A DNA stretch of 64,000 nt from an uncultured virus (IMG/VR IMGVR_UViG_3300025704_000016) (taxonomy: Duplodnaviria; Heunggongvirae; Uroviricota; Caudoviricetes), in IMG/VR virus record IMGVR_UViG_3300025704_000016, positions 1 through 64,000 of that record; one strand, written 5' to 3'. The notes beneath the pieces are model-generated. The model ran no database searches and had not been told where the DNA came from. It was given only the letters and a program-made list of their open reading frames with translations. Positions 9,666-37,751 of the stretch are shown piece by piece. The position numbers and the translations under genes were made by a program. How positions within the stretch are numbered: position 1 is the first letter of the stretch; each line of letters opens with the position of its first letter.

Positions 9666-9666
9666 T

Positions 9667-11733
9667 ATGGCACAATCATCAAGATATTTTAGAATAGACG
9701 ACGACGTACTTTTAGAGTTCATCTATCACGATCAATCTAACCCAAACGCGTATGAGATTGACGTAGACGATAATGGCTCTGAGGTTATGTTCTTGGACAC
9801 GGACCAAGGCAATCCATTTGCTCAAAGACACCTGATCTCTGAATTAGGTGGCGACGTTGTCAACTTCGATGTAACTGATGATGGAGCCTACATTGCAGTT
9901 GAAGGATTTGCCGCTAGAACTCTACTATTACAGAACGGTAAGACTTATAAATTTAACGTAAGCGCTCTTGCAGTACCTACAGACTTTGATATTGAAGGTA
10001 CATTAGGTATAAAAAGTTACGATGCAGTAGCTGAAGTTTTAACTTTTGCACCAAACACAGACGGTCAAACTACTTATACTTATCCAAACAGAGTTGGTGG
10101 TAAAATTACAGTTGACCGTAGAGCTAATCCACTCTTCTCAAACCCAGATGAAGATACTGGCAATGACATTAATCAGACTTTAGGTCGCTTTCATGCCGTC
10201 CAACATGAAGACGATAAAACAAAGTATGCTCTGATTGGTTATGACTCAACTGGAGTCTACGATAAGTACAATTACATAAACAACTCAACAGTTTGGCAAG
10301 GATCAAACTCAGGCGAGCTGGTGACCAACCAGGCGGCGAATACTCTTGCTATCAATTATATCAAGTACGATACAATTAGACTACATTTAAGAAGTGGCTA
10401 TTCTTTCGCTGCCCGAGGCTATGTGGGTTTCTTGTTTGAAGTAACTGCCGATAGAACTTCTGGCGTGAAGAACTATCTAACACAGTTAGTCTACTTGAAT
10501 CAGAGTAACTACGAGTACGCTAATCCAAAGCCTTTTATTCTAGGTGAGACTCTCTACTCTAAGTTTATTGAAGTAAAGGTACCAACTCTAGTACAGCAGA
10601 ATCAAGAGTTCTTAGATAGATTCTACGGTGACGGTACTCAATTCTCATCTGACGTTTCACAGACCTCTAACTATGGTATTAATTTTAAACTGATCGATAC
10701 GCTTTCAGCTGAAGCTGGTTTTGATTATATTTATACTGGCGAAGAGAATAAGTTTACAATCTCAAGAGAGGATGAATTCCAAGACTTTACAGTTGTTGTT
10801 GAAGATGCTCTTGATGGAGACTACTTTAAGATCTATGGAGAGAAAGACAATTCTGCTTCTAACTTTGAGGGCTATATCCTGAATAGAATTCAGACTAGCC
10901 AAGATGATATTACAGTCTTCTTTGACATTGAAGTTTTTGAGCAAGTTGGTGTTTCTAATATTAAGACAGCAACTGCCGGTTTTATGCAATATGAAGATTT
11001 TGATACTCCAGTTGTATATCGACCAGTTATTCAAAATGCAAATACAGCGGTTAATTTCTCAATCGACGTAACGATGAGAATTTACAACACAACGGATAAT
11101 ACTCAAATCGTAAAGAGAGCGAGTTTAACAGTACCACAGGCTGCTAAATACGGTAAGACTCTACAGAAGTTAACTATTAGCTCTGCAAACAAGCTAACTG
11201 AGATCTACAACATTCTGCCGAATACAACACCAAATAGGATTATTCAGGATATTCTGACTAATGCTCTACCTAGAAGTACAAAACAGGTTATTGCTCTGGT
11301 TGAAAGACATAACGTTGTAACTTCAACAGCTCCGGTTCAAGCAGTACCGAGCTTATCAGATCCAAATACGTTTGAGATTGAAGATGTCGAGGCAGTTGAC
11401 TACGTGAATAACGGCCAGTCTGTTATAACTATCCCGCCTTTTACAACTTATGTTAAGTTTAAATTTGCTAAGAAGAAAGGCGATGATCTGGAATATATCT
11501 CACTAAATAATATTGAAAACGTTGTCCTAACTGTTGGTAGAGGTGAAAAGGCTCTTAAGTTTAACCACTATCCACATAAAGACATTGAGATGATCGACGG
11601 TGAAGTTCTATTTAAGATTGATGAAGGAAATGCTAAGATCATTAATGGCCGTAACAGAGGTAGATTCTACATATCTCTGGATAACGGTAACGAAGAAACT
11701 ATGTTAACAACAGGAAGATATAGAGCAGGCTAA
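9667..11733 (+). CDS. Putative virion structural protein (baseplate-region hypothetical)
   Basis: 688-aa beta-rich ORF tightly coupled to its structural neighbours. Confidence 0.5.
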   Translation: MAQSSRYFRIDDDVLLEFIYHDQSNPNAYEIDVDDNGSEVMFLDTDQGNPFAQRHLISELGGDVVNFDVTDDGAYIAVEGFAARTLLLQNGKTYKFNVSALAVPTDFDIEGTLGIKSYDAVAEVLTFAPNTDGQTTYTYPNRVGGKITVDRRANPLFSNPDEDTGNDINQTLGRFHAVQHEDDKTKYALIGYDSTGVYDKYNYINNSTVWQGSNSGELVTNQAANTLAINYIKYDTIRLHLRSGYSFAARGYVGFLFEVTADRTSGVKNYLTQLVYLNQSNYEYANPKPFILGETLYSKFIEVKVPTLVQQNQEFLDRFYGDGTQFSSDVSQTSNYGINFKLIDTLSAEAGFDYIYTGEENKFTISREDEFQDFTVVVEDALDGDYFKIYGEKDNSASNFEGYILNRIQTSQDDITVFFDIEVFEQVGVSNIKTATAGFMQYEDFDTPVVYRPVIQNANTAVNFSIDVTMRIYNTTDNTQIVKRASLTVPQAAKYGKTLQKLTISSANKLTEIYNILPNTTPNRIIQDILTNALPRSTKQVIALVERHNVVTSTAPVQAVPSLSDPNTFEIEDVEAVDYVNNGQSVITIPPFTTYVKFKFAKKKGDDLEYISLNNIENVVLTVGRGEKALKFNHYPHKDIEMIDGEVLFKIDEGNAKIINGRNRGRFYISLDNGNEETMLTTGRYRAG

Positions 11734-12284
11734 TGATATTAAACAGTAGAAATAACTTATTTGACTTTCGTTTTCCAAGAAAGTTTGTTCCAGAAGAAGT
11801 TGCTGAAAAGTATAAGCCTTATCTGAATAAAATTCCAGGTGGTCTTTTGGCAGAGCCAGTAGACTTTGTGAACTATTCAATTCAAGGTTTAAACATACCT
11901 GGTGTAAGTTTTGATCCAACAACACAGGCTGATAACGACGGTACAACACGCTATCACAGAGGTGCAATACCAATACAGAATACGGTTAATAGGCAGTTTA
12001 CAGTGACCTTTCAACTGTTGGATGGATATATAAACTACTGGATTATGATGGACACCTTGCTTTATTATTATGCAAGGACGACATCAGAACCATATATAGA
12101 TCCGATGACCTTAAGGATATTGGACTCGGAAGGAAGCAGTGTGGCTTATATGCAATTTGAGCATGTGATTATGAATTCAATTAATGACCTAAGCTTAAGC
12201 ATGGCGGATAACGTTGCTGAATTCAGCACATTTGAAGTAACATTTTACTACAATAAATTAAACCTAAGACTAGAAATAGACTAA
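11733..12284 (+). CDS. T4 gp3/gp19-like tail tube or tail completion protein
   Basis: YSIQGLNIPGVSF...FTVTFQLLDGYINY...FSTFEVTFYY resembles the gp3/tail-tube fold pattern. Confidence 0.55.
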   Translation: MILNSRNNLFDFRFPRKFVPEEVAEKYKPYLNKIPGGLLAEPVDFVNYSIQGLNIPGVSFDPTTQADNDGTTRYHRGAIPIQNTVNRQFTVTFQLLDGYINYWIMMDTLLYYYARTTSEPYIDPMTLRILDSEGSSVAYMQFEHVIMNSINDLSLSMADNVAEFSTFEVTFYYNKLNLRLEID

Positions 12285-13717: not shown

Positions 13718-14641
13718 ATGAGCGACAATTTTGACATTTTCAATTTGGGCGTAGAAGACGTAGAAACGCATCAGCCCGCAGCAAACACTTCAGCAAATGA
13801 AGTCTACAAACCATCAGCCGACGATGGCAAAGATGGAACTTACAAAGCACTAATCCGCTTTGTTCCTAACCCAGAGAATCCACGCAACTCTCTTATTCAA
13901 AAGTACGTACACTGGTTGACTAATTCATCTGGTGAAGGTAAACTGGTAGACTCTCCAAGTTCAATTGGTGAGAAATGCCCGATTGCAGACGTATTCTGGA
14001 AATTGCGTAAAAGTGATTCTGCAGTTGATCGTAAAGCTTCAGAAAAATTGAAGCGTCGTCAACAGTACTACGCGTTGATTAAGATCATTAAAGATCCACA
14101 AAACCCAGACTTAGACGGTACTTACAAAGTCTTTAAGTTCGGTTACAAAATCAAAGAGAAGATTGACGCTGAGTTGAAGCCAGACTTCGGTGAGCCAACA
14201 CAAGTATTTGACCTATTTGAAGGTAAGAACTTTGAGTTGATTATCACTCGTCAAGGTGAATACAACAACTACGACAAATCTAAATTCTCTTCAAGTCAGT
14301 CAGCTATTATCTTAGGCGATGCTCCGGCAGAACGTAACAAAGAGAACATGGCTACTATTAAAGAAGAGCTAGAAGACGCACCTTCGCTTGCTACGTATGA
14401 CTATCAAGCGTGGGACGAAACAACTCGTGCTTTCGTAAACGACGTCCTTAGAATGTATCTAAATCCAGGTGATTCTATCTCTGAAATCTCTAGCCCAGCA
14501 CCAAAGAAAAGTGCAGCTAAGGCAGAGCCTAAGAAAGAAGAACCAGTAGCAGTTGAAGCAGAAGCAGCTAGCGCAAGCAGCTCTTCTAGCGTGAACGCAG
14601 ATGATGATTTAGATTCTTTCTTGAATGACCTCGACATCTAA
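13718..14641 (+). CDS. gp32: Single-stranded DNA-binding protein (T4 gp32-like)
   Basis: ALIRFVP, KVFKFGYKIKEKI, FDLFEGKNF, NYDKSKF motifs and an acidic DDDLDSFLNDL tail. Confidence 0.9.
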   Translation: MSDNFDIFNLGVEDVETHQPAANTSANEVYKPSADDGKDGTYKALIRFVPNPENPRNSLIQKYVHWLTNSSGEGKLVDSPSSIGEKCPIADVFWKLRKSDSAVDRKASEKLKRRQQYYALIKIIKDPQNPDLDGTYKVFKFGYKIKEKIDAELKPDFGEPTQVFDLFEGKNFELIITRQGEYNNYDKSKFSSSQSAIILGDAPAERNKENMATIKEELEDAPSLATYDYQAWDETTRAFVNDVLRMYLNPGDSISEISSPAPKKSAAKAEPKKEEPVAVEAEAASASSSSSVNADDDLDSFLNDLDI

Positions 14642-20770: not shown

Positions 20771-22615
20771 ATGGCATTACAGAACCTTAAGACATATTTT
20801 GAGTCGACTAACAGAAACGACTTCATGCAACTTCTAGAAAACACATGCGTTGTTTCTGAGAAGATTCAAGCATCCTCATTCCACGTTAGAAAAACTAACA
20901 GCGGTTTTGAGTATTATAAGAGCGGTTCTAAGGACGCAATGAACAAAGTTGATAGAACTATTGTAAAGTACTATGAAAATGCCATCAAGTACTTTAAATC
21001 AATTTCTGGTGACATTGCTGAACAGATGCCAACTGACTGGAAGTTTGGCTTTGATTATATGGTTGATAAGAAGACTGTAGACATTGAATACGACAAGCTA
21101 CCAAAGAACCACCTGATCTTAACACATATTCAGGTGATGAGTCCTAGCAATCCTACTGAAATCAAGAAGGTGATTAGAGACCCAAACATTCTTTACAAGT
21201 GGGCAGACATTTTAAACGTACAGAGACCGCAGGTTATTTTCCAAGGTAAATTGTCAGACTACCAGAAAGAAGAGTTGGTTAAACTTTTAGAAATGAGCGA
21301 AACTCAATTCAAGAAAGAGTTTACAGACGCTTCTTTTACTAGAAAGATCTATAATATCTTTAATAAAGGCTTGAACTCAACAGGTCTTAATCTAGATTTA
21401 GAAAAAGACATTGACTCTTTAATCTTAAACTTCTTTGACGGTAAGTCAGTTAAGAACTTTAAGCTTGAGAGATTTGACAAGGCTGAAAGAGAAAGCCGCA
21501 ATCCATCTGACATGTATCAGATCTCAATCTTAGATCTAGTAGAATACATCTCACAATACGATATTCCTAGCATTGAACTTAAAGAAGATGATACCGACAT
21601 AAGGTACATCGAACTTATTTCAATCCTATTTAACTCATATGTAGAAAAGCACGCAACAAAATATATTGGTGCTAGCTTTGACTCAGCAGACTTTGCACAA
21701 GGCGAAGAGTTTGCACTCAATACTACATTTATTAAAAACGAAAAGACACTATCACTGGTTCAGAAAGATGTTCTAGCAGAGCTTTACAAGATTGCGCTGG
21801 GTTCATTTAGAAAGAAGAGAACTAAAGAGACTGATATTATCAACGCTGCTTTAATGGAGCAGATCAACGAGATCGTTGCTAAGATTGAAGCTCTAGTGAT
21901 GGGCGAAACAAACGAAGGCGACGTTATGAACTTCAACACCTATCTAAAGACACAGAATTTACAAACACAAGTAAGCCCAATTACTGAAGCATTAACTGTT
22001 AAATATGCTGAACAAGGCAAGAAGCCTGTTAACATGTTCGTGGGTAGATTTCAACCATTTACGCTTGGACATGCTAAAGTGATTGAGACGATTAGTAAGC
22101 AGAATGGATTCCCAGTAGTTATTTTTCTAGTAAAGGCAAAAGCTAAAAAGAAAGAAGATGCTTTTAAGAGACCTTATGATGAAGATCTACAGATTGAGAT
22201 GCTAAACAAATTAAAGTCAAAGTACCCAATTAAGGATGTATATGTAATTGAAGGTTCTGCTGGAATTGATAAAATGTTTAACGCAATGAGAGGAGATGGA
22301 TATGAACCAGTCCTTTGGGGAACAGGAACCGACAGGATGAAAAACTATGGATTTCAAGTAAACAATCAACAATACAGAGAGGATCTAGGAGTTAGAGCAG
22401 ACTTTGGCCTGTTTGAGATTCCAAGAACCGGCAAGAATATTTCAGCAACACAAGTTAGAGAAGCAATGCTAGCAGACGATGAGACGCTTTTTAAGAAGCT
22501 TACACCAAAAGAGATACATTCTATGTATGGTGATTTAAAAGACAAACTAGAGGCCTCAATGGCAACTAACGAGTCAACCATTATGACCTTCGATCAATTT
22601 ACAAAGAATATATAA
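20771..22615 (+). CDS. Fusion of a degenerate ligase-like N-domain and a C-terminal HIGH-family cytidylyl/nucleotidyltransferase
   Basis: VSEKIQAS in the N-part; FVGRFQPFTLGH, GTDR and ISATQVRE in the C-part. Confidence 0.7.
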   Translation: MALQNLKTYFESTNRNDFMQLLENTCVVSEKIQASSFHVRKTNSGFEYYKSGSKDAMNKVDRTIVKYYENAIKYFKSISGDIAEQMPTDWKFGFDYMVDKKTVDIEYDKLPKNHLILTHIQVMSPSNPTEIKKVIRDPNILYKWADILNVQRPQVIFQGKLSDYQKEELVKLLEMSETQFKKEFTDASFTRKIYNIFNKGLNSTGLNLDLEKDIDSLILNFFDGKSVKNFKLERFDKAERESRNPSDMYQISILDLVEYISQYDIPSIELKEDDTDIRYIELISILFNSYVEKHATKYIGASFDSADFAQGEEFALNTTFIKNEKTLSLVQKDVLAELYKIALGSFRKKRTKETDIINAALMEQINEIVAKIEALVMGETNEGDVMNFNTYLKTQNLQTQVSPITEALTVKYAEQGKKPVNMFVGRFQPFTLGHAKVIETISKQNGFPVVIFLVKAKAKKKEDAFKRPYDEDLQIEMLNKLKSKYPIKDVYVIEGSAGIDKMFNAMRGDGYEPVLWGTGTDRMKNYGFQVNNQQYREDLGVRADFGLFEIPRTGKNISATQVREAMLADDETLFKKLTPKEIHSMYGDLKDKLEASMATNESTIMTFDQFTKNI

Positions 22616-27113: not shown

Positions 27114-27150
27114 AAGCGGGGCAACGTCAGAGCGCGTTGCCCCGCTTTTT
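27114..27150 (+). terminator. Strong intrinsic terminator
   Basis: 13-bp stem AAGCGGGGCAACG/CGTTGCCCCGCTT plus T tract. Confidence 0.9.
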
Positions 27151-27162
27151 AGTATACATATC

Positions 27163-27189
27163 TAAACAAAGTATAGTCTCACCATATAA
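27163..27189 (+). promoter_or_regulatory. TAAAC-N17-TATAA promoter of the modification/polymerase operon
   Basis: Same bipartite motif as upstream of ssb, clamp, gp55 and clamp loader. Confidence 0.6.
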
Positions 27190-27204
27190 CATCTAAACAA
27201 GAAT

Positions 27205-27537
27205 ATGAGCGATTTAATAGACAACATCTTAGAACAAGCAGACCAAATCATTAACCACAGATCAGAAGAAAAGAACCGCCAATACGGTCCTTTCGAAGAA
27301 GGCATGCGCAGAGCTGCGATGATCTGTTCTGGTATGACTGGTAAGCAATTCACAGGAGCTGACATGTATGCCGCACTTGTTGCTCTTAAACTGAGCAGAC
27401 ATTCATATAATTACAAGCAAGATAACCTACTTGATGCTGCAGCTTATATCGGTGGCCTGGATAACTACATCCAAAAGTACGGCTACAAAGAGACAGAAAA
27501 ACCACTAGAAACAGGCGACGCAGATGCAGGAATTTAA
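27205..27537 (+). CDS. DUF6378-like small all-alpha protein (nucleotide-modification associated)
   Basis: ILEQADQII..R...QYG.F...ALKLSR...DNLLDAAAY pattern. Confidence 0.7.
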   Translation: MSDLIDNILEQADQIINHRSEEKNRQYGPFEEGMRRAAMICSGMTGKQFTGADMYAALVALKLSRHSYNYKQDNLLDAAAYIGGLDNYIQKYGYKETEKPLETGDADAGI

Positions 27538-28603
27538 GTACTTTACAGATTATGAGCAAGACCACTCAATTAAGATTGGTATTGCAGCACTAGTTGGCAA
27601 ATTAAGCCCAAAGGATAGTTCACATAAGTCCGGCTGGGCTTTCATGCTTTGTAATCAACTCTGGCATGCTGGTTTTAAGAATGCTGAAGTTATTACAGAG
27701 GTCAACGTGGATTGGTCAGACTATGACGTAATCCTGATTGAACATGGTATGGAGTTTAAAGGTGCTTTCAATATCTTTGGCGGAGCCAACGATGATCTTT
27801 ATCATCAGCTTAATCGCCTCTTTGTAGAAGGTGTAAGATTCTACAGTCTACACCATGATATGCCAGCTGTTAATGAACTAATTGAGAAACGATTAAAGAC
27901 TGGCTCAGATCTATTTAAGACTCTGGAAACCAGAATTGACGAGGCTAGAGAGATCTGTAGTCAGATCCCAAGAGTAGATCACATCGAGAAGACTGATAAA
28001 CTCTGCTTTGGTGACAGCCACTCTTTCAGTCAGTATTCACCAGGCTTCATGTGCGATCGCAACGACGGTCTAACACTCTTCGGCACTCTAAAGCGTGGCA
28101 TGGAAGAATACGTTTATCCTTGGACTAAAGAACTTAGAGTCTATCTAGGCAACATCGATATTCGCCATCATCTAATGCGCCAAAAAGATCCAGAAAGTGC
28201 ACTCGAAGGCCTAATGCAGAACTACGAAGCTGAACTTCTAAGAATGCAAGAACGTGGCGTTGAGAAGATTGAGATTGTACAAGCACTTCCAATTGAGAAT
28301 GAGAGCAGACCTTTACCGAAGACCGGTTATTATAAAGGCACTCCTTTCGCTGGCTCTTGGCAAGAACGTACCGGTCTAGTTAAGACCTTTAACTGGTATG
28401 TTAATGAGATGGGAGAACGCAATGGCTGGCAAGTGTGGAAACACCCAGAAGTTTATCTAAACAGTTTAGATGAGTTAGACTTCGAAGTTATGGAGAAGCC
28501 TAAATCAGTGCATATTGCCAGAAAATACTATCGCTGGGATCTTGTAGCAGACAAGGCTAATAAAAACCTAGAGAGTAGAGTACAATCAACAGCATTATTT
28601 TAA
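27524..28603 (+). CDS. Protein with C-terminal SGNH/GDSL-like domain (possible acyl-transfer or esterase enzyme)
   Basis: FGDSHS (block I), YLGNIDIR (block III) and KSVHI (block V-like). Confidence 0.45.
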   Translation: MQEFKYFTDYEQDHSIKIGIAALVGKLSPKDSSHKSGWAFMLCNQLWHAGFKNAEVITEVNVDWSDYDVILIEHGMEFKGAFNIFGGANDDLYHQLNRLFVEGVRFYSLHHDMPAVNELIEKRLKTGSDLFKTLETRIDEAREICSQIPRVDHIEKTDKLCFGDSHSFSQYSPGFMCDRNDGLTLFGTLKRGMEEYVYPWTKELRVYLGNIDIRHHLMRQKDPESALEGLMQNYEAELLRMQERGVEKIEIVQALPIENESRPLPKTGYYKGTPFAGSWQERTGLVKTFNWYVNEMGERNGWQVWKHPEVYLNSLDELDFEVMEKPKSVHIARKYYRWDLVADKANKNLESRVQSTALF

Positions 28604-28604
28604 G

Positions 28605-29810
28605 ATGAAGATAAAAACGAACAGATACTACGAGGACTTCCTATACTACTATCAGAAGGCAAAGGATCAGCAGAAGAAATGTAATCTAGGCTCTATTCCG
28701 CACCCAGAAAGCGGTATGGATGATAGCTTAATGGAGCATGTTGAACTCTACGACGTAGTAGAGCGTAAGTTGGCAGGTTTTAGTCAGATCAAGAATGATG
28801 TATTCTATGGCTGGAGCAAAGAACATCCGTATTATGAAAAGATGCAGGCTGGTAATGTCTCAGCTCAGCGTAAAGAAGTTGCTACCAACTGGACTGGCAA
28901 ACAGAAAACATTCGGCATGGCCGAATGGTTCTACGTCTTCTTACTACATGCTGTAACCGGCAGTGGTATTAACTATGCTAAGAAGCCATCAGGCTACCAC
29001 AACTCACTGCTTTTTCATCTACATGAATGTGATACAATTGAAGCTATGTGTGAGGTTGTTAAGACACATCCTAAGCCGTTCTTTACTTCGGTTGGGTATC
29101 AATTTCCAAAGTTCCCGAAGCCGCCTCAGGCTGAAGCCAGTGGCTTTGTGGGCATGGAGGATTACTCTACTCAATTCCAGTATAAAAAAGGTGGCGACTA
29201 CTACCTATGTGAGTTTGCACCAAGACTAGTTCGTGAAATGGCAGACATGTTACAGAAAGAAAACCGTAAGTTCCCACTCAGAGAACTTGGTGAATGGATG
29301 TTTGCATGGAATGAGAAGAATGGCCTGAATGCCTACAGATTCCAGTACGCGGCTTTCTTGGCAGATATTGCAGACTTCTATCCAGAATACATTGAGCTCT
29401 ACAGCCCGTTCTACTATGGCACAAATGCAGTTGAATGTATTAGCTATCTGGCAGATCCGGTAGGTAAGATGAACAAGATTGAATTCTTAGACGAGGTGAT
29501 GCTGCAGATCAACCGAGATACAGGTGGAAGACCATACGACGCAGAAGATGTTGCATGTGATTATATCCGTTGGGTTGAGAACTACGTGCGGCCTGGTGCA
29601 GCATATGACCATCTGGACTATGATAACCTATGGAACTCATCCAATATTAAGGACCATCCATTTGGTAGACAGAAAGCAATGCTGGAACTGGGTATTATCG
29701 AAACCTTTAATGGTATGAAACACCACCCATCAGATGATAAAGTTATTGCCGAGGCCGGTATTACAGTAGAACAGTATAAAAATATGATAAAAAAGCACTA
29801 TGTCGCATAA
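28605..29810 (+). CDS. Divergent aGPT-Pplase-like (amino acid:DNA transferase-like) protein
   Basis: DDSLMEHV.LYDVVER, FQYAAFLADIA...FYYGTNAVECI and DAEDVACDYIRW align by eye with the aGPT-Pplase1 motifs DPIL..Y.FTNV.R, F.AY....DL...GPGA..GL and D.E..LCE..KY; operon context fits. Confidence 0.5.
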   Translation: MKIKTNRYYEDFLYYYQKAKDQQKKCNLGSIPHPESGMDDSLMEHVELYDVVERKLAGFSQIKNDVFYGWSKEHPYYEKMQAGNVSAQRKEVATNWTGKQKTFGMAEWFYVFLLHAVTGSGINYAKKPSGYHNSLLFHLHECDTIEAMCEVVKTHPKPFFTSVGYQFPKFPKPPQAEASGFVGMEDYSTQFQYKKGGDYYLCEFAPRLVREMADMLQKENRKFPLRELGEWMFAWNEKNGLNAYRFQYAAFLADIADFYPEYIELYSPFYYGTNAVECISYLADPVGKMNKIEFLDEVMLQINRDTGGRPYDAEDVACDYIRWVENYVRPGAAYDHLDYDNLWNSSNIKDHPFGRQKAMLELGIIETFNGMKHHPSDDKVIAEAGITVEQYKNMIKKHYVA

Positions 29811-30696
29811 TAAACACACAGGATTATTAATCAACCAGGATTTAAACTTGATGATGCCTAATCGTCAGGCTTGGCTAGATCTAGCCGGTGACTGGCAAGA
29901 TCCGTTTCCAGATCCAATAGTTACAGAGCACAATGGCTTTAATGTAGTTAGAGAGGACATGATGGGCTTTGGTTCTAAGTGCCGTTTTGGTGACATCTTA
30001 GTAAGCACATGTGAAAAAGATACTCTAGTCTATGTACAACCAAGATACGGTTTTGCAGGTATCTCACTTGCATATCTGGCCAAGAAGTATAACAAGAAGT
30101 TAGTTCTATTTAGTCCAAGTCAAAAGGAGATCTCAGACCACCAGGCGATCTGTATTGAACGTGGCGCTGAGATGAAGTTTAAGCGTATTGCAGCAATGCC
30201 AGTCTTAAACGCACATGCTAAAAAATGGGCAGAAGAGAACGATGCTTTCTTTATACCGCTTGGGCTTAAACATGAACTAGTAACTGCAGCAGCTGTTAAA
30301 GTAGCTTATGATCTTGCAGAGAAGCAAGGCTATCCACAAGAGGTTTGGTCGGCTATTTCAACCGGTGTTCTACAAAGATCTTTACAGATTGCATGGCCGG
30401 ATGCAGATTTTCATGGAGTTGCAGTTGCACGTAACATACAGAAAGGCGAAAGAGGTAGAGCTACATTATGGTCACATCCAAAGGCTTTTACGCAGAATGT
30501 TGATGCAGAATTTTACCCTCCCTTTCCATCTGCACTAAACTACGACGCTAAGGCTTGGGAATTCATGCAGAAGCATGCCAGCCCTGGAGCCTGGTTCTGG
30601 AACGTAGGTGGTGACCCAAAGCCAGAAGACTCGATGACCAAAGTAAACACTAATTCTTACAGAGAATGGGGTCAAGTTTTAACCGAAGACGTGTAA
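29800..30696 (+). CDS. PLP-dependent enzyme (fold type II, Trp synthase beta-like) of the phage DNA-hypermodification type
   Basis: VVREDMMGFGSKCR (PLP lysine), GFAGISLAYLA, FIPLGL, AISTG, NYDAKAW, FWNVG. Confidence 0.75.
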   Translation: MSHNKHTGLLINQDLNLMMPNRQAWLDLAGDWQDPFPDPIVTEHNGFNVVREDMMGFGSKCRFGDILVSTCEKDTLVYVQPRYGFAGISLAYLAKKYNKKLVLFSPSQKEISDHQAICIERGAEMKFKRIAAMPVLNAHAKKWAEENDAFFIPLGLKHELVTAAAVKVAYDLAEKQGYPQEVWSAISTGVLQRSLQIAWPDADFHGVAVARNIQKGERGRATLWSHPKAFTQNVDAEFYPPFPSALNYDAKAWEFMQKHASPGAWFWNVGGDPKPEDSMTKVNTNSYREWGQVLTEDV

Positions 30697-30735
30697 ACAA
30701 AAGAGGATTAATCTATAATACTACAAAGAAATAAT

Positions 30736-31200
30736 ATGGCAAACACAGATAATAAATGTTCGGATCTTGACGTGGCAGATTTCCACTCAAATGCAGATGA
30801 CACCTTTGGCTTAATCTTTAACAAGCAGAAAGAATTACAAGAGCGTCTTGGCTTTAATTTTGAAGGCTGGACAATCAAAGAAATCGCTGACTTTTGGATG
30901 GTTAACAAACATGCATTAAGTGACGAACTCAACGAGATGTTTGATGCCCTAGGCGGTATCAACGACGGTATTGGTAACGCAGGCTGGAAGTATTGGAAGC
31001 AAGACAATGCAAAAGCTGCTAACATGAAAATTGAAGATCTATCCGAAGCAGACAAATTAGAACTCTTTTATGAATGGATTGACGGATTACATTTTTACAT
31101 GAACTTTGCAATAGCAATTGGTATGACTAGTAAAGATGTTGTTAATCTATACATGGCGAAGAACGCAGAGAATCACGACAGACAAGAAAGAGGCTACTAA
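30736..31200 (+). CDS. All-alpha dNTP pyrophosphatase (dimeric dUTPase/T4 gp56/MazG-like)
   Basis: QKELQ, DELNEM, WKYWK, EWIDGLHF, YMAKNAENHDRQ..GY. Confidence 0.85.
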   Translation: MANTDNKCSDLDVADFHSNADDTFGLIFNKQKELQERLGFNFEGWTIKEIADFWMVNKHALSDELNEMFDALGGINDGIGNAGWKYWKQDNAKAANMKIEDLSEADKLELFYEWIDGLHFYMNFAIAIGMTSKDVVNLYMAKNAENHDRQERGY

Positions 31201-31220: not shown

Positions 31221-32624
31221 ATGCTATTAGACATTGAGCAGAAAGAAAATGAAGTAATCGTCAGCTACTACGATAAGAAAGGCGAAGTTTCATTTAAACG
31301 CTATCGCGTAGATAACTTTGAGAATTGGACAGTAGCTGAAGATAACGACAGATACAGAGACCAAAACTTTAAAAACTGGGACGGCAGAGCAATCAAACGC
31401 AAACGCTCAAGAACTTACAACAAATTCAGTCTACTCTATTTTATGGACTCTCTGCCTGAAGCAGATAGAGAAGAGATCTTTGCATTCAACATGCCAAGAA
31501 CATACTATGTCGATATTGAGACTGAGATTGTAGATGGCTTTCCAAGACCAGAAGAGGCTAAGAGTCGTATCTTAACTTTTTCGATCATTACACCAGAACG
31601 TAAAGCAATTGTACTTGGTCTAGATGACTTGAATGCAGAACAGATCAAGAAGATTGAAGATGACACTAACGCTCACTTCAAGAACTACGATCAAGACTGG
31701 ACTTTTAGCTACTACAAGTTTAAGAATGAGTATGATATGCTCTATAACTTCTTGCACAAGTTCTTGCCTAAGTTTCCAATGATGACTGGCTGGAACTTTA
31801 TCAACTATGACTGGCAATATATTGTTAATCGCTGTAAGAGGCTACAGATTGATCTAACTGAAGTTGCAATCACAGGAGCACTAGACAAAAAAGACTCAAG
31901 ACCATTACACATGGGTATTCTTGACTATATGCAGCTCTATGATAAGTATGATCGTTCAGTTGCAGTAAAGGAATCTAATAAGCTTGATTTTGTCTCAGGT
32001 GCAGTTCTTAACGTAGCCAAAATTAAATATACAGGCTCACTGCAAGATCTTTACGAAAACAACTTTCAAAAGTATGTTTTCTACAACGTAGTTGACTCGA
32101 TTCTGGTTTATTACATTGATTGCCAGTTAAAGTCAATGGAAGTCCTACTGACCTTATCAACTATTACTAAAATGCCACTCTATAAAGCAGCCAGCCCCGT
32201 TGCAGTAACAGAGTCTTTAATTGCAAGAAAGCTTGCAGAAGACAACGTTAAGATCGGCGTTGAGTATGACAAAGAGGACAGTAAGAAAGACGGTCAGTAT
32301 GAAGGTGCTTTTGTAAAACAACCAATTGTTGGTTATTACTCAGGAGTAAGTGCATTTGACTTTGCATCACTGTACCCATCGGTGATGAGGCAGTTTAATA
32401 TCTCGCCGGATGCTTTCATTGAAATTGTACCGGAAGCTGAAATTGCCGAGCGCAGAAAAGATAATAACGTAATCGTTTGCGAGAACGGAGTTGTCTATAA
32501 AAAGGAAGATTCAATCCTAAAAAAGATCCTCAGCGATCTATATGCACAAAGAAAGGAATACAAGAAGGCTTCATATGCTTATTATGAAAAAGCACATGAA
32601 CTTCAAAAAAAATTTAGGCTCTAA
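31221..32624 (+). CDS. gp43: DNA polymerase B, N-terminal subunit (exonuclease, palm motif A, first finger helix)
   Basis: ExoI DIETE, ExoII GWNFINYD, ExoIII YNVVD and motif A FDFASLYPS; ends after LYAQRKEYKK without motifs B/C. Confidence 0.92.
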   Translation: MLLDIEQKENEVIVSYYDKKGEVSFKRYRVDNFENWTVAEDNDRYRDQNFKNWDGRAIKRKRSRTYNKFSLLYFMDSLPEADREEIFAFNMPRTYYVDIETEIVDGFPRPEEAKSRILTFSIITPERKAIVLGLDDLNAEQIKKIEDDTNAHFKNYDQDWTFSYYKFKNEYDMLYNFLHKFLPKFPMMTGWNFINYDWQYIVNRCKRLQIDLTEVAITGALDKKDSRPLHMGILDYMQLYDKYDRSVAVKESNKLDFVSGAVLNVAKIKYTGSLQDLYENNFQKYVFYNVVDSILVYYIDCQLKSMEVLLTLSTITKMPLYKAASPVAVTESLIARKLAEDNVKIGVEYDKEDSKKDGQYEGAFVKQPIVGYYSGVSAFDFASLYPSVMRQFNISPDAFIEIVPEAEIAERRKDNNVIVCENGVVYKKEDSILKKILSDLYAQRKEYKKASYAYYEKAHELQKKFRL

Positions 32625-32775: not shown

Positions 32776-33783
32776 ATGTCACTATTTAAAGAAAGAATAG
32801 AATTTAAGCCTTTTGAGTACCCGGAGTATTATACCGAGGGTTGGCTGAAACAAGCTCAAGCGTTCTGGTTACACACTGAGATCTCAATGCAAGGAGATGT
32901 GAAAGACTGGAACGAAAGAATGGAAGACCACGAAAAGAACCTGGTAGGCAATATTTTGCTAGGTTTTGCACAAACTGAATGTGCAGTTTCAGATTACTGG
33001 ACTGGTATGGTAACAAAGTGGTTTCCGAAGCATGAAATCAAGCAAATGGCAATGATGTTTGGCTCACAAGAGACTATTCATGCCACTGCATACTCATATC
33101 TAAATGAAACTCTAGGACTAGAGGACTTCACTGCATTCTTACACGAACCAGCAACAGCTGAAAAGTTTGAGCATTTAACCTCAACCGAAGCTGATTGGAC
33201 TCATGACGATCTTGCCGAAAACTCAAATGCAAGAAGACAAGTTGCTAGATCTTTAGCAATCTTTAGTGCCTTTGCAGAAGGCGTTTCACTCTATTCTTCA
33301 TTTGCGGTACTCTACTCGTTCCAAATGAGAAACTTATTAAAAGGTATTGGTCAGCAAATGAAATGGTCAGTACGTGATGAGTCTCTACACTCTAAAATGG
33401 GTTGTCAACTCTTCAGACACATGACTGATGAATACCCAGATCTAAAAGAACAGGTTAAAGACGATGTTGTTAGAGCTGCTCAACTAATGGTTGAAATGGA
33501 GCACAAATTCATCGATAAGATGTTTGAAATGGGTAATCTTGAAAACCTTAAGAAAGAAGATCTTAAGAACTTTATTACCAAAAGAGCCAATGAAAAAATT
33601 GCAGAACTTGGTTACACAGAAGGCCCCTTCATGGAATATGATGAAGAGAGCGCTAGTCAACTAGACTGGTTCTACCATCTAACCGGTGGCCACACACATA
33701 CCGACTTCTTTGCAGTTCGACCAACTGACTATTCAAAAGCAGGCGAAGACGAAAACTGGGACGAAGATGACTTATTCGACTAA
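32776..33783 (+). CDS. nrdB: Ribonucleotide reductase class I beta subunit
   Basis: KPFEYP, FWLHTE, AQTE, ETIHATAY, AEGVSLYSSF, RDESLH, DFFA.RPTDY. Confidence 0.95.
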   Translation: MSLFKERIEFKPFEYPEYYTEGWLKQAQAFWLHTEISMQGDVKDWNERMEDHEKNLVGNILLGFAQTECAVSDYWTGMVTKWFPKHEIKQMAMMFGSQETIHATAYSYLNETLGLEDFTAFLHEPATAEKFEHLTSTEADWTHDDLAENSNARRQVARSLAIFSAFAEGVSLYSSFAVLYSFQMRNLLKGIGQQMKWSVRDESLHSKMGCQLFRHMTDEYPDLKEQVKDDVVRAAQLMVEMEHKFIDKMFEMGNLENLKKEDLKNFITKRANEKIAELGYTEGPFMEYDEESASQLDWFYHLTGGHTHTDFFAVRPTDYSKAGEDENWDEDDLFD

Positions 33784-33796
33784 TTAATTATACACG

Positions 33797-35650
33797 ATGT
33801 TTAAAATGTTTAAAAAAGAAGATACAGACCGCACTGAAGTGGTTAATTACGCAGCAGACTTAGGCTGGGAAATCGGAGTAGATTTTCCAACATGGGCTAA
33901 CACTGAAATCTACGTAAAAACAATCAGCAGAGGCTATCTGTTAGAAGGTGAAACACCGAAAGATGCTTACTGGAGAGTTGCAACTACAACTGCTAAAAGA
34001 CTGCAAAAGCCAGAAATGGCAAGCAAGTTCTTTGACTACATCTGGAAAGGCTGGTTAAACCTAGCGTCTCCAGTACTTTCAAACACTGGAACTGAGCGTG
34101 GTCTACCAATCTCTTGTTTTGGGATTGATGTCGCAGACTCAATTGCAGATATTGGCGGTAAGAATCTAGAGATGATGCTCTTAGCAAAACATGGCGGTGG
34201 TGTTGGTATTGGTGTTAACCAGATCAGATCTGCTGGATCTACGATCCGCGGTAATGGAACTTCAGACGGTGTTGTACCTTTTATTAAGATCTATGACTCA
34301 ACTATCCTAGCTACTAATCAAGGAAGTGTAAGACGTGGCGCAGCTTCGGTTAACATTGACATTGAGCATGGTGACTTTTGGGAATGGTTAGAAATACGTG
34401 AACCAAAAGGTGACGTTAATCGCCAGTCTTTAAATATCCACCAGTGTGTGATTGTACCAGACGGTTTTATGCAAAAGGTAGAAGCCGGTGATAAAGAAGC
34501 ACGTAAAAGATGGGCTGCAGTGCTTAGAAAACGTAGAGCAACAGGTGAGCCTTATATCATGTTTAAAGGTAATGTGAACAGTGCAAATCCAGATGCTTAC
34601 AAGAACAATGGTCTAAAGGTTTATATGACCAACATTTGTTCTGAGATTGCACTACATACAGATGAGAACCACTCTTTTGTATGTTGTTTAAGTTCATTGA
34701 ACCTGGCAAAATATGACGAGTGGAAAGACACAGATCTAATCTACACTGCAACATGGTTCTTGGATGGAGTACTTGAAGAATTTATCCAGAAAGCAAAATA
34801 CATGCGTGGTTTTGAGAATAGCGTGAGATCAGCAGAAAAAGGTAGAGCTTTAGGACTTGGAGTCTTGGGCTGGCACACTTACCTGCAAGAGCACAATATT
34901 CCATTCGAAGGCCTAACAGCTCAGTTTGAAACACGTAAGATCTTCTCTCAACTAAAGACTGAAAGTGAGAAGGCAAGCCGAGATCTAGCAAAAGAATACG
35001 GTGAACCTTTATGGTGTGTTGGCACTGGCATGCGCAATACGCACCTGAGAGCCGTTGCGCCAACCGTGAGCAACTCAAAACTTGCTGGTAACTATTCACC
35101 AGGTATTGAGCCTTGGGCTGCTAACGTGTTCACAGAACAAACAGCAAAGGGTACTTTTATTCGTAAGAACCCAACGTTAGAACAAGCTTTAGATCTAATC
35201 GGTAAGAATACAAAAGACACTTGGGATAAGATCCTAGAAGATGGTGGTAGTGTACAAGGTCTAGATTGGATGGATGATTATCACGTACATATCGGTGAGG
35301 CTCTAGATAAAGATTGGGGCACTCCGATCCATAAAGATAAATTGAAAGAAGCGCCAGAAGCAGCCGAAGATCAGTTTATTCCAATGAAAGATGTATACAA
35401 GACCTTTAAAGAAATTAACCAACTTGAGCTGGTAAAACAGGCTGGAGTGAGACAACAATATGTTGACCAAGCAGTCTCTTTGAACTTAGCGTTTCCAATT
35501 GAGGCAACACCTAAGTTTATCAACCAAGTGCACCTAGAAGCTTACAATCAAGGTATTAAGACGCTCTATTACATGAGAACAGAGTCAGTACTGAGAGGCG
35601 ATATTGCAACAAGAGCAATGGATCCAGATTGTATCAGCTGTGATGGATAA
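33797..35650 (+). CDS. nrdA: Ribonucleotide reductase class I alpha subunit (no ATP cone)
   Basis: ASPVLSN, PISCF, GGGVG, TNICSEI, VCCLSSLNL, APT, YYMR and C-terminal CISCDG. Confidence 0.95.
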   Translation: MFKMFKKEDTDRTEVVNYAADLGWEIGVDFPTWANTEIYVKTISRGYLLEGETPKDAYWRVATTTAKRLQKPEMASKFFDYIWKGWLNLASPVLSNTGTERGLPISCFGIDVADSIADIGGKNLEMMLLAKHGGGVGIGVNQIRSAGSTIRGNGTSDGVVPFIKIYDSTILATNQGSVRRGAASVNIDIEHGDFWEWLEIREPKGDVNRQSLNIHQCVIVPDGFMQKVEAGDKEARKRWAAVLRKRRATGEPYIMFKGNVNSANPDAYKNNGLKVYMTNICSEIALHTDENHSFVCCLSSLNLAKYDEWKDTDLIYTATWFLDGVLEEFIQKAKYMRGFENSVRSAEKGRALGLGVLGWHTYLQEHNIPFEGLTAQFETRKIFSQLKTESEKASRDLAKEYGEPLWCVGTGMRNTHLRAVAPTVSNSKLAGNYSPGIEPWAANVFTEQTAKGTFIRKNPTLEQALDLIGKNTKDTWDKILEDGGSVQGLDWMDDYHVHIGEALDKDWGTPIHKDKLKEAPEAAEDQFIPMKDVYKTFKEINQLELVKQAGVRQQYVDQAVSLNLAFPIEATPKFINQVHLEAYNQGIKTLYYMRTESVLRGDIATRAMDPDCISCDG

Positions 35651-35745: not shown

Positions 35746-35772
35746 GAAACTGTTTGCTCTTTTCACATACAA
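35746..35772 (+). promoter_or_regulatory. GAAAC-N17-TACAA promoter upstream of clamp and polymerase C-subunit
   Basis: Variant of the bipartite motif. Confidence 0.5.
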
Positions 35773-35795
35773 TAACTAAACATAAATTAAAAAAT

Positions 35796-36539
35796 ATGAA
35801 GTTAAAAATTGATCGTATTGACCAGCACGCGTTGACCAACTTTATCAATCGCGTTAAGCTAATTGACTCTTTCATCTACATGAAAATCACTAATGGTAGA
35901 ATCGAGTCTTCTGTTTATTTACCGCAGAGAGATGCAGTAAAGAGCCATGTTGTAAACATGGACCAGATTTTCCAGACTAATGAGATTGTACCTAGTGACA
36001 AAGCCCTAAAGATTGCATTCTTCGATGGTGCTAAAGTTATTGAAGCAATCAAACACTTTGAACATGATGCTATTAAAGGTGAAATTGAATTCATCGAGAA
36101 TGATGAAGAATACGTAGCATCTACGTTTAGAATCTACAACGATGAGTTAGAAGTTAAGCTATCTTGTTCAGAACCATCATTGGGCTTTAAAGATCTTACA
36201 AAAGAGCAACAAGAAGCTATCTTCTCAAGAGATAACAGTGCATTCAACTTTGAGATCGATACTCATATGATTAACAAAGTAAAGAACTTGTTTAATCTAG
36301 ACACAGAAGAAACATTTAGTATTAAAGCTAACGGTAAAGGAGTTAATGTTGATGGTAAATCATTTAGCGTTGTGATTAATCCAGAAAGCAAAGGCTCTGG
36401 TAATGCTACAGTCTATAAGAAGTATTTGAACCTGTTAGACAGGGAAGAACAAAACGTGTTCGTATCGAGCTCTAAAGTTGTCTTCCAGTCTAAGGATTCA
36501 GAAACACTATTAACTGTATCAACTTGCCAAACAGCTTAA
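35796..36539 (+). CDS. Sliding clamp (gp45-like), probable
   Basis: About 247 aa with an alternating alpha/beta two-domain pattern, adjacent to the polymerase gene; start refined to MKLKIDR. Confidence 0.55.
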   Translation: MKLKIDRIDQHALTNFINRVKLIDSFIYMKITNGRIESSVYLPQRDAVKSHVVNMDQIFQTNEIVPSDKALKIAFFDGAKVIEAIKHFEHDAIKGEIEFIENDEEYVASTFRIYNDELEVKLSCSEPSLGFKDLTKEQQEAIFSRDNSAFNFEIDTHMINKVKNLFNLDTEETFSIKANGKGVNVDGKSFSVVINPESKGSGNATVYKKYLNLLDREEQNVFVSSSKVVFQSKDSETLLTVSTCQTA

Positions 36540-36542
36540 TAA

Positions 36543-37751
36543 ATGGATATAAAAGAGTTAGAAAATAAACCAATAGATCAATTGACTGATGCTGACGCTA
36601 AGCTGCTTGTAGATCACTACAAGCAGCTTTCAGCAAAGTATACAGCTTATGAGCAGGCGGTTAAGTTAACTCTTAACTCGATCTACGGAGCCTTTGGTAA
36701 CAAATGGTTTCACTTCTTCAATATCGACATTGCAGAGTCAATTACAAAACAGGGCAAGAATGCTATTCTCTACTCAGAGTCAATCTTGAACAAATATGTT
36801 CAAGAATTTTGGCATAAAGACACTGCAATTCACGAGCAATTCGGTATTAAAGTAAAGGGTAAAATAGAGAAGCCAGCTGTAATCTACATCGATACTGACT
36901 CATGTTACGTTCAGTTTCAAGATGTTTATGAGTCTATCATCTGGGAAGATGAAAGTAAGAAGATGTCAATTGACGAGTTTATCTTAGCACTTTATGGCTT
37001 TAGACTTAATAATTATATTGTTAAGTGTATGGAGATGTACGCTGAGAAACGTAATACTGATAACTTCTTAATGTTTGAGCTTGAGACTATTGCATATAAT
37101 GGTATCTGGATGAGCAAGAAGAAGTACATTCAGAATATTGCATGGGACGATAAACTAGAGAAGACCGATCGACATGCGCCTCTGAAAAAGATTAAGACGA
37201 TTGGATATGATACTATTCAATCTTCAACACCAGCATTTGTAAGAGCAAAACTAGTTGAAGCACTTAAAATTATATTTAAGAGTGCTAAAACACCAAGTGC
37301 TGAAGAATTACAAGAACTTGTTCAATTCATGAAGCAGGTCAGAAAAGAGTTCCAGCTTGCAGATATTGACGAGATCTCATTTAACAGAAGGACAAACAAT
37401 ATTGAGAAATATATTGTTGACGACCAGATTGAATTTCAAGTTGGTCTAAAATGTCCGGCCAATGTTAAAGCAGCAGGTTACTACAACTACCTGCTTAATA
37501 TGAACTCTAAATTTAAAACAAAGTATAAAGTAATTGGTAACGGTGAGAAGCTAAAGATCTACAACTGTAAGAGTCCAATCAGTGAAGTTTATGCCTATCT
37601 ACCAGGTGAACATCCTTATGAGTTTGCACCAGAGATAGACTACGACACTCAGTTTGAAAAGGCAATGATTGACCCGTTAAACAGAGTACTTACAGCAATC
37701 GGTCTACAGACACTTGACACTAATCTACTTTATGCATCAGCACTATTTTAA
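36543..37751 (+). CDS. gp43: DNA polymerase B, C-terminal subunit (second finger helix, motifs B/C, thumb)
   Basis: QAVKLTLNSIYGAFGN (B), YIDTDS (C), KKKY, IDYDTQFEK...PL, and a C-terminal clamp-binding-like ALF. Confidence 0.92.
   Translation: MDIKELENKPIDQLTDADAKLLVDHYKQLSAKYTAYEQAVKLTLNSIYGAFGNKWFHFFNIDIAESITKQGKNAILYSESILNKYVQEFWHKDTAIHEQFGIKVKGKIEKPAVIYIDTDSCYVQFQDVYESIIWEDESKKMSIDEFILALYGFRLNNYIVKCMEMYAEKRNTDNFLMFELETIAYNGIWMSKKKYIQNIAWDDKLEKTDRHAPLKKIKTIGYDTIQSSTPAFVRAKLVEALKIIFKSAKTPSAEELQELVQFMKQVRKEFQLADIDEISFNRRTNNIEKYIVDDQIEFQVGLKCPANVKAAGYYNYLLNMNSKFKTKYKVIGNGEKLKIYNCKSPISEVYAYLPGEHPYEFAPEIDYDTQFEKAMIDPLNRVLTAIGLQTLDTNLLYASALF

Follow-up and report, generated by a model that had tools for sequence, protein, structure and literature searches.

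The genes g1-g5, which occupy positions 27205-31200 of a 64,000-nucleotide stretch of DNA (the window) from an uncultured virus (IMG/VR record IMGVR_UViG_3300025704_000016), include three, g2, g3, and g4, whose status as a conserved module is strongly supported by the comparison of related viral sequences. g2 is predicted to be a two-domain protein with an SGNH/GDSL-fold C-domain, g3 a helical protein resembling HhH glycosylases, and g4 a fold-type II pyridoxal 5′-phosphate (PLP) enzyme; they are flanked by a DUF6378 protein (g1) and an ortholog of the T4 gp56 dCTPase/dUTPase (g5). The locus is probably a post-replicative DNA hypermodification cassette, most likely acting on 5-hydroxymethylcytosine (hmC), with the chemistry and the final base being inferred, and the phage DNA probably holds an undescribed decorated cytosine. 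An original prediction, made from the letters of the window, had placed here a DNA base-hypermodification operon and framed it in terms of thymidine and 5-hydroxymethyluracil (hmU). The operon idea is supported by fold, motifs, gene fusions, and a linkage that is shuffled yet conserved, whereas the thymidine framing does not hold up well against the gp56 ortholog, the gp42-type synthase found beside the module, and the ThyA of a relative, all of which make hmC likelier. The system is widespread and chemically uncharacterised, and its earlier interpretation appears right in kind and most likely wrong on the base.

A joint function of g2, g3, and g4 is indicated mainly by the retention of the trio under a changed gene order and by the fusion of two of its members. 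The loci compared were 89 related viral loci, consisting of nine near-identical ones and the best 80 of 377 confirmed matches. Lineage B, to which the source phage belongs (17 loci), shows the order g1-g2-g3-(X)-g4-g5-polymerase, X being a protein family described below, and lineage A (60 loci) the order [MazG-like]-[thymidylate synthase (TS) homologue]-small open reading frame (ORF)-g3-(X)-g4-g2. Lineage C (10 loci) combines g3 with an HhH-GPD protein, X, and two other proteins of no assigned family, and lineage D (two loci) has g2-g3 with X and others. At the loci with at least 2.5 kb on both flanks of g3 (n = 46), g2 and g4 are both present in 41, in two orders, and g2 only in two. All seven of the g3-family representatives of at least 640 aa are g2-g3 fusions in which the g2-like part is always N-terminal; an MGDG_synth match in one fused protein (P0214) is weak, falls between the g2-like and g3-like parts, and was dismissed. 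g1 and g5, in turn, accompany g3 in lineage B only. The family is a large one: ~930-1040 protein clusters were counted for g3 and g2, along with 377 viral contigs. Contigs from metatranscriptome libraries of four studies, labelled as marine, estuary, or salt marsh, match the region over most of its length, and one of them bridges g3-g4-g5-polymerase; since RNA libraries may hold DNA, these contigs show presence, neither transcription nor an operon.

Two other proteins adjoin g3 in the relatives and are not encoded in the window. The ~332-aa family X lies next to g3 in about half of the lineage A loci, as well as in lineages C and D (L062:8145-9143, L078:8900-9895, L096:8709-9713). Its members are mutually related (1e-99 to 1e-184) and are without a Pfam or PHROG match. 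By ESM Atlas language-model features, the nearest clusters have a minority of members with HMUDK_hel (PF18723, former aGPT-Pplase clade 1) or ADDT (PF18724, former aGPT-Pplase clade 2), with a score of 0.97 that is a lead only. X may be a second aGPT-Pplase-like paralog, and its position beside g3 recalls the paralogous aGPT-Pplase pairs of thymidine systems (PMC8989533). The second is a 263-aa protein of the HhH-GPD superfamily (Pfam 1e-06; L096:5869-6660), which adjoins g3 in lineage C and has homologues 5′ of g1 in a sister lineage (L036, L043, L044, L046-L049, and L053).

g3 represents a family of 933 homologues (162 representatives at 50% identity) and has no Pfam match at E ≤ 0.1, none in NCBIfam, and no useful PHROG match. 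Its assignment to the aGPT-Pplase/amino acid:DNA transferase superfamily, as a putative new clade, is confirmed only by fold and motif. The model of g3 has a predicted local distance difference test score (pLDDT) of 82.9, and Foldseek returned no match to it in the PDB at E ≤ 0.001. In a VIA structural search of 48,161 chains, the top match was PaMx11 gp46 (8z2m_A; Z 8.4, root-mean-square deviation 4.3 Å over 207 aa), followed by DUF2419 queuine-salvage proteins (Z 7.7 and 7.3) and then by HhH-GPD DNA glycosylases, so that the resemblance of this protein to HhH/aGPT-Pplase folds, on which its reading as a divergent amino acid:DNA transferase depended, was recovered by structure and not by family profiles. 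The top match in BFVD, 57% identical, bears the UniProt name "Amino acid:DNA transferase domain-containing protein". Across 30 diverse members of the family, 12 positions are invariant (H115, T118, G119, S120, G130, N133, G164, F246, D254, G272, E314, and C318). The proposed nucleophile of PaMx11 gp46 is Cys247, which holds the flipped base, and its metal is bound by Glu243 and Thr244 (PMC11472151). The spacing of E314 and C318 in g3 equals that of Glu243 and Cys247 in gp46, and the aligned ranges (10-333 in the model and 8-264 in the chain) place these residues within ~2 positions of each other. A sequence-profile search of the PDB with g3 gave only haemagglutinin rows, which are spurious. 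A collection of 50,697 phage records, searched at the DNA and protein levels using the entire region and two g3 proteins as queries, yielded no match, and no g3 was recognised in a cultured phage.

For g2, Pfam and NCBIfam gave no match, and PHROG matches were obtained to phrog_13881 and phrog_17781; the label "SGNH-like" in the original prediction is thus supported by the fold and not by these families. Its AlphaFold2 (AF2) model (pLDDT 88.5) consists of an α/β N-domain of no assigned family (~1-150) and an SGNH/GDSL-fold C-domain (~153-346). The top 50 matches of the VIA search are almost all SGNH esterases or acyltransferases, with Z-scores from 14.0 down to 9.7, and Foldseek found 56 PDB matches at E ≤ 0.001. 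The SGNH signature comprises the serine of GDS(L) in block I, Gly/Asn in block III, and the histidine in block V. In g2, the corresponding elements are G163-D164-S165, G209-N210-x-D212, and S328-x-H330. They do not vary across 29 sequences, fusions among them, and are at least 95% conserved in 46 further homologues; the H-S that follows S165 is likewise invariant. Block III reads GNxD, not the GxND of the superfamily, and in block V a Ser replaces the customary Asp. On the evidence of the model, the C-domain of g2 belongs to the SGNH fold superfamily with its Ser and His kept. A sequence-profile search of the PDB returned a single, spurious row. A likeness of the N-domain to T4 β-glucosyltransferase was not supported by sequence, with no PF09198 match in the virus record at E ≤ 10 and no usable match in the ESM Atlas. 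Homologues of g2 are present in 43 phage records, mostly of T4-like Aeromonas phages, including 44RR2.8t, 31, and 25 (28-34% identity), and in Tenacibaculum phage PTm1 the homologue consists of the SGNH part alone, amid ribonucleotide reductase (RNR) genes.

The PLP enzyme postulated at the position of g4 is supported by phrog_7093 (1.2e-41 over residues 44-270), whereas the match to Pfam PALP, at 22.5 bits, falls below the 35-bit cut-off. M6 gp52 is a full-length member of the same PHROG (2.2e-159). Lys60 of g4 aligns with the Schiff-base PLP lysine of cysteine synthases ("SVKCR" motif); across 48 homologues, both this residue and an S-T-G loop show conservation of 95% or more. A direct BLASTP comparison of g4 with M6 gp52 is weak (E 0.033), and the C-terminal pattern PFP...YD.KAW...FWN[VI]G is common to both. 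By family, g4 is thus inferred to be a PLP enzyme of the M6 gp52/ViI gp226 type, with decarboxylation as its predicted reaction. Fold-type II PLP enzymes also catalyse β-replacement and elimination. M6 gp52 is a biochemically proven PLP-dependent decarboxylase whose substrate is an amino acid borne on a DNA base, and decarboxylase activity on a DNA-borne amino acid is likewise known for ViI gp226 (PMC8989533). A g4-like PLP domain was also seen at residues 464-691 (profile E 1.3e-46) of a ~870-aa ORF annotated as "DNA modification methylase" in Erythrobacter phage vB_EliS_R6L (KY006853, 4735-7350), near which lies a gene resembling that of 3′-phosphoadenosine 5′-phosphosulfate (PAPS) reductase; through this fusion, the g4 family is connected with DNA modification beyond the T4-like phages.

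The flanking genes of the source locus belong to known families. g1 matches PF19905 (1.3e-10, 41.8 bits against a cut-off of 27.1), which was found in all 120 among the matches listed for its 483 homologues. The DUF6378 label therefore stands, and the linkage of g1 to the module is limited to its own lineage, where it sits 5′ of g2 in every lineage B locus reaching that far and is missing from other architectures. No PDB match to g1 was obtained by a sequence-profile search, and hhalign lent no support to DUF6378 being a MazG-like pyrophosphatase, its probabilities of 0.4-1.4% being non-significant. g5, correctly read from the start as an all-α pyrophosphatase, matches Pfam dUTPase_2 (37.5 bits against a cut-off of 22.9), as well as phrog_173. 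A tblastn search with g5 matched 1452 phage records, for the most part T4-like, with dCTPase, gp56, or NTP-PPase as annotation; T4 itself is one of them (29.5% identity, 2e-14), and in 1231 the match extends over 80% or more of g5. The protein also shares 41% identity with a frame of 182 aa in Aeromonas phage 31, at 14001-14387. As judged from these alignments, g5 is an ortholog of the T4 gp56 dCTPase/dUTPase.

The likely substrate of the module is hmC rather than thymine because g5 is a gp56 ortholog, because a gp42-type synthase lies beside the module in lineage A, and because such a synthase is also encoded by a near-identical relative. In lineage A, a TS homologue is located 0.35-0.75 kb upstream of g3 in all 48 loci whose upstream sequence extends for 1.5 kb or more. 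The motif RSNDVV[FY]GY[RK]ND is present in 54 of 54 module-adjacent TS homologues, with D169 kept and N177 replaced by Asp (E. coli ThyA numbering), and one of these homologues also has DFMC, with Asp at the position of L143. In the same numbering, N177D is associated with dCMP specificity, L143D/E with a hydroxymethyl product, and D169N with 5-hydroxy-dCMP synthases, according to a recent report (PMC13326640, 2026). By their residues, the module-adjacent enzymes of lineage A are thus of the type of the T4 gp42 5-hydroxymethyl-dCMP synthase. Contig G003, in which g3 and g4 are 98% and 100% identical to those of the source phage, encodes a 278-aa TS homologue with T4 dCMP hydroxymethylase as its best PDB match (5.7e-19); its D-F-V-C, R-S-N-D, and T-F-D correspond to Asp at both specificity positions with Asp169 retained. 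Another relative, contig G001, carries an ordinary, canonical ThyA. The absences listed originally were borne out: a search detected neither a TS homologue (PF00303, PF02511) nor a 5-hmU DNA kinase in the whole 73.6-kb virus record of which the window is a part (estimated at ~24% of the genome), and no radical-SAM Pfam match was found among the 53 ORFs scanned. The T4-type glucosyltransferase signature PF09198 is likewise missing from the record at E ≤ 10. A gp56 ortholog and a gp42-type synthase together point to the T4 scheme of replacement of cytosine by hmC, in which the module would occupy the slot of the T-even glucosyltransferases.

A pathway consistent with these assignments can be outlined as follows. 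g5 and a gp42-type synthase encoded elsewhere in the genome would replace cytosine by hmC during replication, in the fashion of T4, after which g2 and g3 would act as a two-component enzyme on flipped-out hmC in DNA. In this enzyme, g3 would provide an HhH-type base-flipping scaffold and a Glu/Cys active site, with Cys318 used as Cys247 is used by PaMx11 gp46, in the model of which the cysteine attacks C6 and an amino-acid nucleophile captures an exocyclic methylene intermediate. The place of the 5-hmU DNA kinase would be filled by the Ser/His domain of g2, which would most likely turn the hydroxymethyl group into a leaving group by forming an ester with it, or would otherwise transfer or remove an acyl group. 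g4 could then trim the appended amino acid, most simply by decarboxylation. As g4 would need a free α-amine, a side-chain-linked residue, such as O-linked serine in the logic of ViI, is the most economical guess. The benefit to the phage would be the shielding of its DNA from host nucleases. More tentatively, and with considerably less confidence than in the cassette as such, we can speculate that abundant marine T4-like phages replace all their cytosine by a 5-substituted derivative that originates from an amino acid, such as 5-(2-aminoethoxy)methylcytosine. No kinase would take part in this route: the SGNH enzyme would esterify hmC in DNA, possibly with the amino acid itself, its Cys-dependent, transferase-like partner would swap the ester for an ether or amine linkage, and the PLP enzyme would decarboxylate the product.

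Several other explanations of the same locus were weighed. Since thymidine derivatives are the substrates of the closest relatives of g3 and g4 that have been characterised, the module might decorate hmU in DNA, as in M6, ViI, PaMx11, PhiW-14, and SP10. This seems highly improbable in view of the adjacent pyrophosphatase, which is a gp56 dCTPase ortholog, of the Asp at position N177 in all 54 adjacent TS homologues and in that of contig G003, which denotes dCMP specificity, and of the ordinary ThyA of a relative; moreover, neither a dUMP-type hydroxymethylase nor a 5-hmU DNA kinase was seen. An action on free nucleotides before replication, with g3 binding a nucleoside or nucleotide in the manner of DUF2419, g2 and g4 tailoring a dCMP derivative, and the product being polymerised afterwards, would agree with the second and third structural matches of g3, which are DUF2419 enzymes within one Z unit of the top, and with the neighbouring genes of nucleotide metabolism (dCTPase, RNR, polymerase). 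Yet the characterised relatives of g3 and g4 (PaMx11 gp46, M6 gp51 and gp52, ViI gp226) all act on DNA polymers, and g4 homologues reside within the large "DNA modification methylase" ORF of Erythrobacter phages, and we consider pre-replicative tailoring improbable.

Another explanation, which we hold to be unlikely but deserving of some weight, is that g3 is a DNA-binding, base-flipping helper comparable to the helical domain of 5-hmU DNA kinases, with the SGNH domain of g2 as the sole catalyst and a simple ester, such as O-acetyl-hmC, or an aminoacyl ester for g4 as the product. The g2-g3 fusions do mirror the fusions of kinase and helical domain in thymidine systems (such as the 637-aa SP10 5-hmdU DNA kinase; fusions of this type are mentioned in PMC8989533), the only meaningful-looking hhalign alignment of g3 is with HMUDK_hel, the g2 homologue of phage 31 is fused to a C-terminal domain with a weak HMUDK_hel match (E 0.0036), and X, present in many loci, could be the true transferase. 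Nevertheless, that alignment has a probability of 1%, the Glu-x3-Cys motif is invariant in 30 diverse g3 members, which would be unexpected for a structural helper, and the window lacks X while keeping g4, which needs an amino-acid adduct. The notion that the five are unrelated early or middle genes with no shared pathway, g2 being an esterase active on the host envelope or on metabolites, draws on the usual preference of SGNH enzymes for lipids or carbohydrates, on the lack of linkage of g1 and g5 to g3 outside lineage B, and on the SGNH-only homologue of PTm1 among RNR genes; it is hardly credible in the face of seven independent g2-g3 fusions and of the co-occurrence of g2, g3, and g4 in 41 of 46 full-flank loci despite their altered order.

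A number of points weigh against a hypermodification cassette directed at hmC. The 89 loci are 57-100% identical to g3 and are close relatives, not independent lineages, and at three of the 46 full-flank loci g3 occurs with neither g2 nor g4 and has other partners instead. Aeromonas phage 25 has a solitary g2 homologue with different genes as its neighbours. The Z-score of 8.4 for g3 is, by the caution of VIA itself, middling for a helical protein, and the equivalence of its Glu and Cys to those of PaMx11 gp46 is based on motif spacing and aligned ranges alone. Neither g3 nor any of 36 diverse relatives matches Pfam ADDT (E ≤ 0.01) or HMUDK_hel, while the controls PaMx11 gp46 and M6 gp51 score 97 and 160 bits with ADDT; in hhalign, the alignment of g3 with gp46 and gp51 has a probability of 0.7% and that with HMUDK_hel of 1%, neither being significant, although in the latter the Cys motifs pair (EDVaCDyIRy / EHTLCEFDKY). 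No acyl donor for g2 is known, and a late esterase or acetyltransferase action of this protein is equally possible. The gp42-type gene is absent from the window and its record, and is known from the contig of a relative and from another lineage. Finally, no 5-hmdU DNA kinase (PF18748) was detected at E ≤ 1 in the four related records G000-G003 or in the complete genome of Aeromonas phage 31, which is weak evidence because the records are 24-59% complete and because the kinase of PaMx11 (gp49) itself reaches only 18 bits on PF18748.

To our knowledge, the cytosine hypermodifications described in phages are sugars, and amino-acid or polyamine adducts occur only on thymine, all of them dependent on a kinase. 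A kinase-less, hmC-directed route, if true, would therefore mean a new DNA base and new enzyme chemistry, with an SGNH enzyme and a new HhH-type transferase clade acting on DNA; if activation indeed proceeds through an ester, hmC would for the first time be seen to carry a hypermodification other than a sugar, and the activation of a DNA base through an ester would likewise be without precedent. Given the size of the family and the origin of matching library contigs in marine, estuary, and salt-marsh samples, the base could be common in ocean viromes. A common modified base would affect sequencing chemistry and restriction-based methods, and the enzymes that make it are potential DNA-modifying tools. 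The system may also bear on the handling of hmC in T4 relatives that have genes 42 and 56 and no glucosyltransferase (Aeromonas phages 44RR, 31, and 25). In the literature, no description was found of an SGNH protein with an aGPT-Pplase, of an SGNH enzyme in DNA hypermodification, or of an amino acid:DNA transferase (AADT)-like enzyme acting on hmC, while P-loop kinases that phosphorylate TET-made 5hmC have been mentioned as speculation only (PMC8256090).

The coordinates of the locus are collected in Table 1. The five co-directional genes are tightly packed, with overlaps of 14 nt between g1 and g2 and of 11 nt between g3 and g4, and with gaps of 1 nt between g2 and g3 and of 39 nt between g4 and g5, in agreement with their original description as mostly overlapping or abutting. 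The claims of a strong terminator ahead of them and of a DNA polymerase directly downstream were also accurate, with a hairpin and T-run at the expected place and with the N-terminal half of a split family-B polymerase beginning 20 nt past the end of g5. The bipartite promoter, in turn, was not substantiated: a promoter scan found no sigma-70-like site on the + strand between 27148 and 27205, and the repeat ATCTAAACAA shows no enrichment in the rest of the window (at up to one mismatch, 15 matches against 10.9 expected).

Table 1. Features of the g1-g5 locus and its immediate surroundings, in window coordinates.
Feature	Position	Strand	Basis and remarks
Terminator-like hairpin	27114..27147	+	14-bp stem with 9 G-C pairs, 6-nt loop, then TTTTT; directly after the preceding ORF, closes the upstream unit
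Direct repeat, 10 nt, ATCTAAACAA	27160-27169 and 27191-27200	+	Two copies in the 57-nt leader; only exact copies in the window
g1, DUF6378 protein, 110 aa	27205..27537	+	Pfam PF19905
g2, two-domain protein with predicted SGNH/GDSL-fold C-domain, 359 aa	27524..28603	+	Fold of the AF2 model
g3, predicted helical HhH-glycosylase-like protein, 401 aa	28605..29810	+	Fold and motif; no Pfam
g4, putative PLP enzyme of fold type II (M6 gp52 family), 298 aa	29800..30696	+	phrog_7093
g5, T4 gp56 dCTPase/dUTPase ortholog, all-α nucleoside triphosphate (NTP) pyrophosphatase, 154 aa	30736..31200	+	Pfam dUTPase_2, phrog_173
N-terminal half of split family-B DNA polymerase	31221..32624	+	Pfam DNA_pol_B_exo1 and DNA_pol_B; phrog_2062

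The C-terminal half of the polymerase (36543-37751) is ~3.9 kb away from the N-terminal one, and the space between them holds the genes of the two subunits of RNR (32776-35650), as well as an ORF of 261 aa without an assigned family (35754-36539); the polymerase of Aeromonas phage 31 is also split (43A/43B), but its halves are adjacent. The source phage is a T4-like marine myophage, with gp32, UvsW, Mre11/Rad50, the gp20 portal, the gp23 capsid protein, the clamp loader gp44, the split polymerase, and RNR being present. Elsewhere in the window, a 614-aa protein (20771-22615) has a C-terminal cytidylyltransferase-like nucleotidyltransferase domain (PF01467, 1.4e-07) and 420 N-terminal residues without a Pfam match, and a possible mobile or homing nuclease is the 157-aa ORF located among the tail and portal genes (48287-48760), whose N-terminal domain is that of a TnsA-like endonuclease (PF08722, 3.1e-20). 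A 2231-aa ORF open at the window start (150-6845), with no Pfam match at E ≤ 0.001, is followed by four more large match-less ORFs (6847-12284).

Among cultured relatives, Aeromonas phages 44RR2.8t, 31, and 25 have genes 42 and 56 and lack glucosyltransferase genes, according to Petrov et al. 2010 (PMC2993671). Phage 31 resembles the source phage in carrying a g2 homologue, which forms the N-terminal half of the 795-aa ORF233c, and in its split polymerase; it also has a second, gp42-like TS homologue. It differs in that the C-terminal half of ORF233c is missed by g3 profiles and has a weak HMUDK_hel match (E 0.0036), and in the lack of a g4 homologue. The reading of ORF233c as a g2-g3 fusion was rejected, since the profiles recognise only its N-terminal, g2-like half. 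Directly 5′ of this ORF, phage 31 (L014) encodes a sodium:solute symporter family protein (4438-5961; PF00474, 7e-53), unusual for a T4-like phage, which might import a substrate. In phage 25 (L105, NC_008208), two genes upstream of the stand-alone g2 homologue (1776-2840 and 2881-3957) are marked "not conserved in 44RR2.8t", and the first of them starts with a GxGxxG dinucleotide-binding motif. This first gene may encode a UDP-galactopyranose mutase, which would point to a sugar-based modification there. As phages 31 and 25 carry only part of the module, the Aeromonas phages are partial models only.

Comparison of the module with the characterised thymidine systems reveals a partly shared set of components. 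In M6, the set consists of gp51 (AADT), gp52 (PLP decarboxylase), gp53 (radical-SAM isomerase), gp54 (5-hmdU DNA kinase), and gp55 (helical protein). g4 falls into the same PHROG as gp52, g3 shares the fold class of the gp51-type AADTs and has a Glu-x3-Cys motif like theirs, and in both phages the modification genes are located near those of RNR and DNA polymerase. By contrast, the source module has no detected kinase or radical-SAM enzyme and includes an SGNH-fold partner, g3 is missed by the ADDT Pfam model, and the TS homologue tied to the module in relatives is of the dCMP type, not of the dUMP type. ViI, compared here by its description, uses the serine:DNA transferase gp247, the PLP decarboxylase gp226, and the kinases gp67/gp243 to make 5-(2-aminoethoxy)methyl-dU. 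Its combination of a transferase with a fold-type II PLP decarboxylase and no isomerase (PMC8989533) is a minimal logic that would also fit g3 and g4, but it acts on phosphorylated hmU, whereas the source module probably acts on hmC and has no kinase detected. PaMx11 gp46 (PUGT, 5-phosphomethyl-dU glycinyltransferase, 8z2m) is the best structural match of g3, which reproduces its Glu/Cys spacing; the two proteins differ in a sequence identity of 6%, in the ~110 additional residues of g3, and in the lack of profile-level similarity, and neither the Arg-rich loop nor the FGPW motif of PUGT was identified in g3.

With T4, finally, the source phage shares the scheme rather than the tailoring enzymes. 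It differs from T4 in the absence of a PF09198 glucosyltransferase from its record, and it resembles T4 in g5, the gp56 ortholog, and in the gp42-type synthases found beside the module in lineage A and in the near-identical relative, with g2, g3, and g4 predicted to take the tailoring role that the α- and β-glucosyltransferases have in T4.

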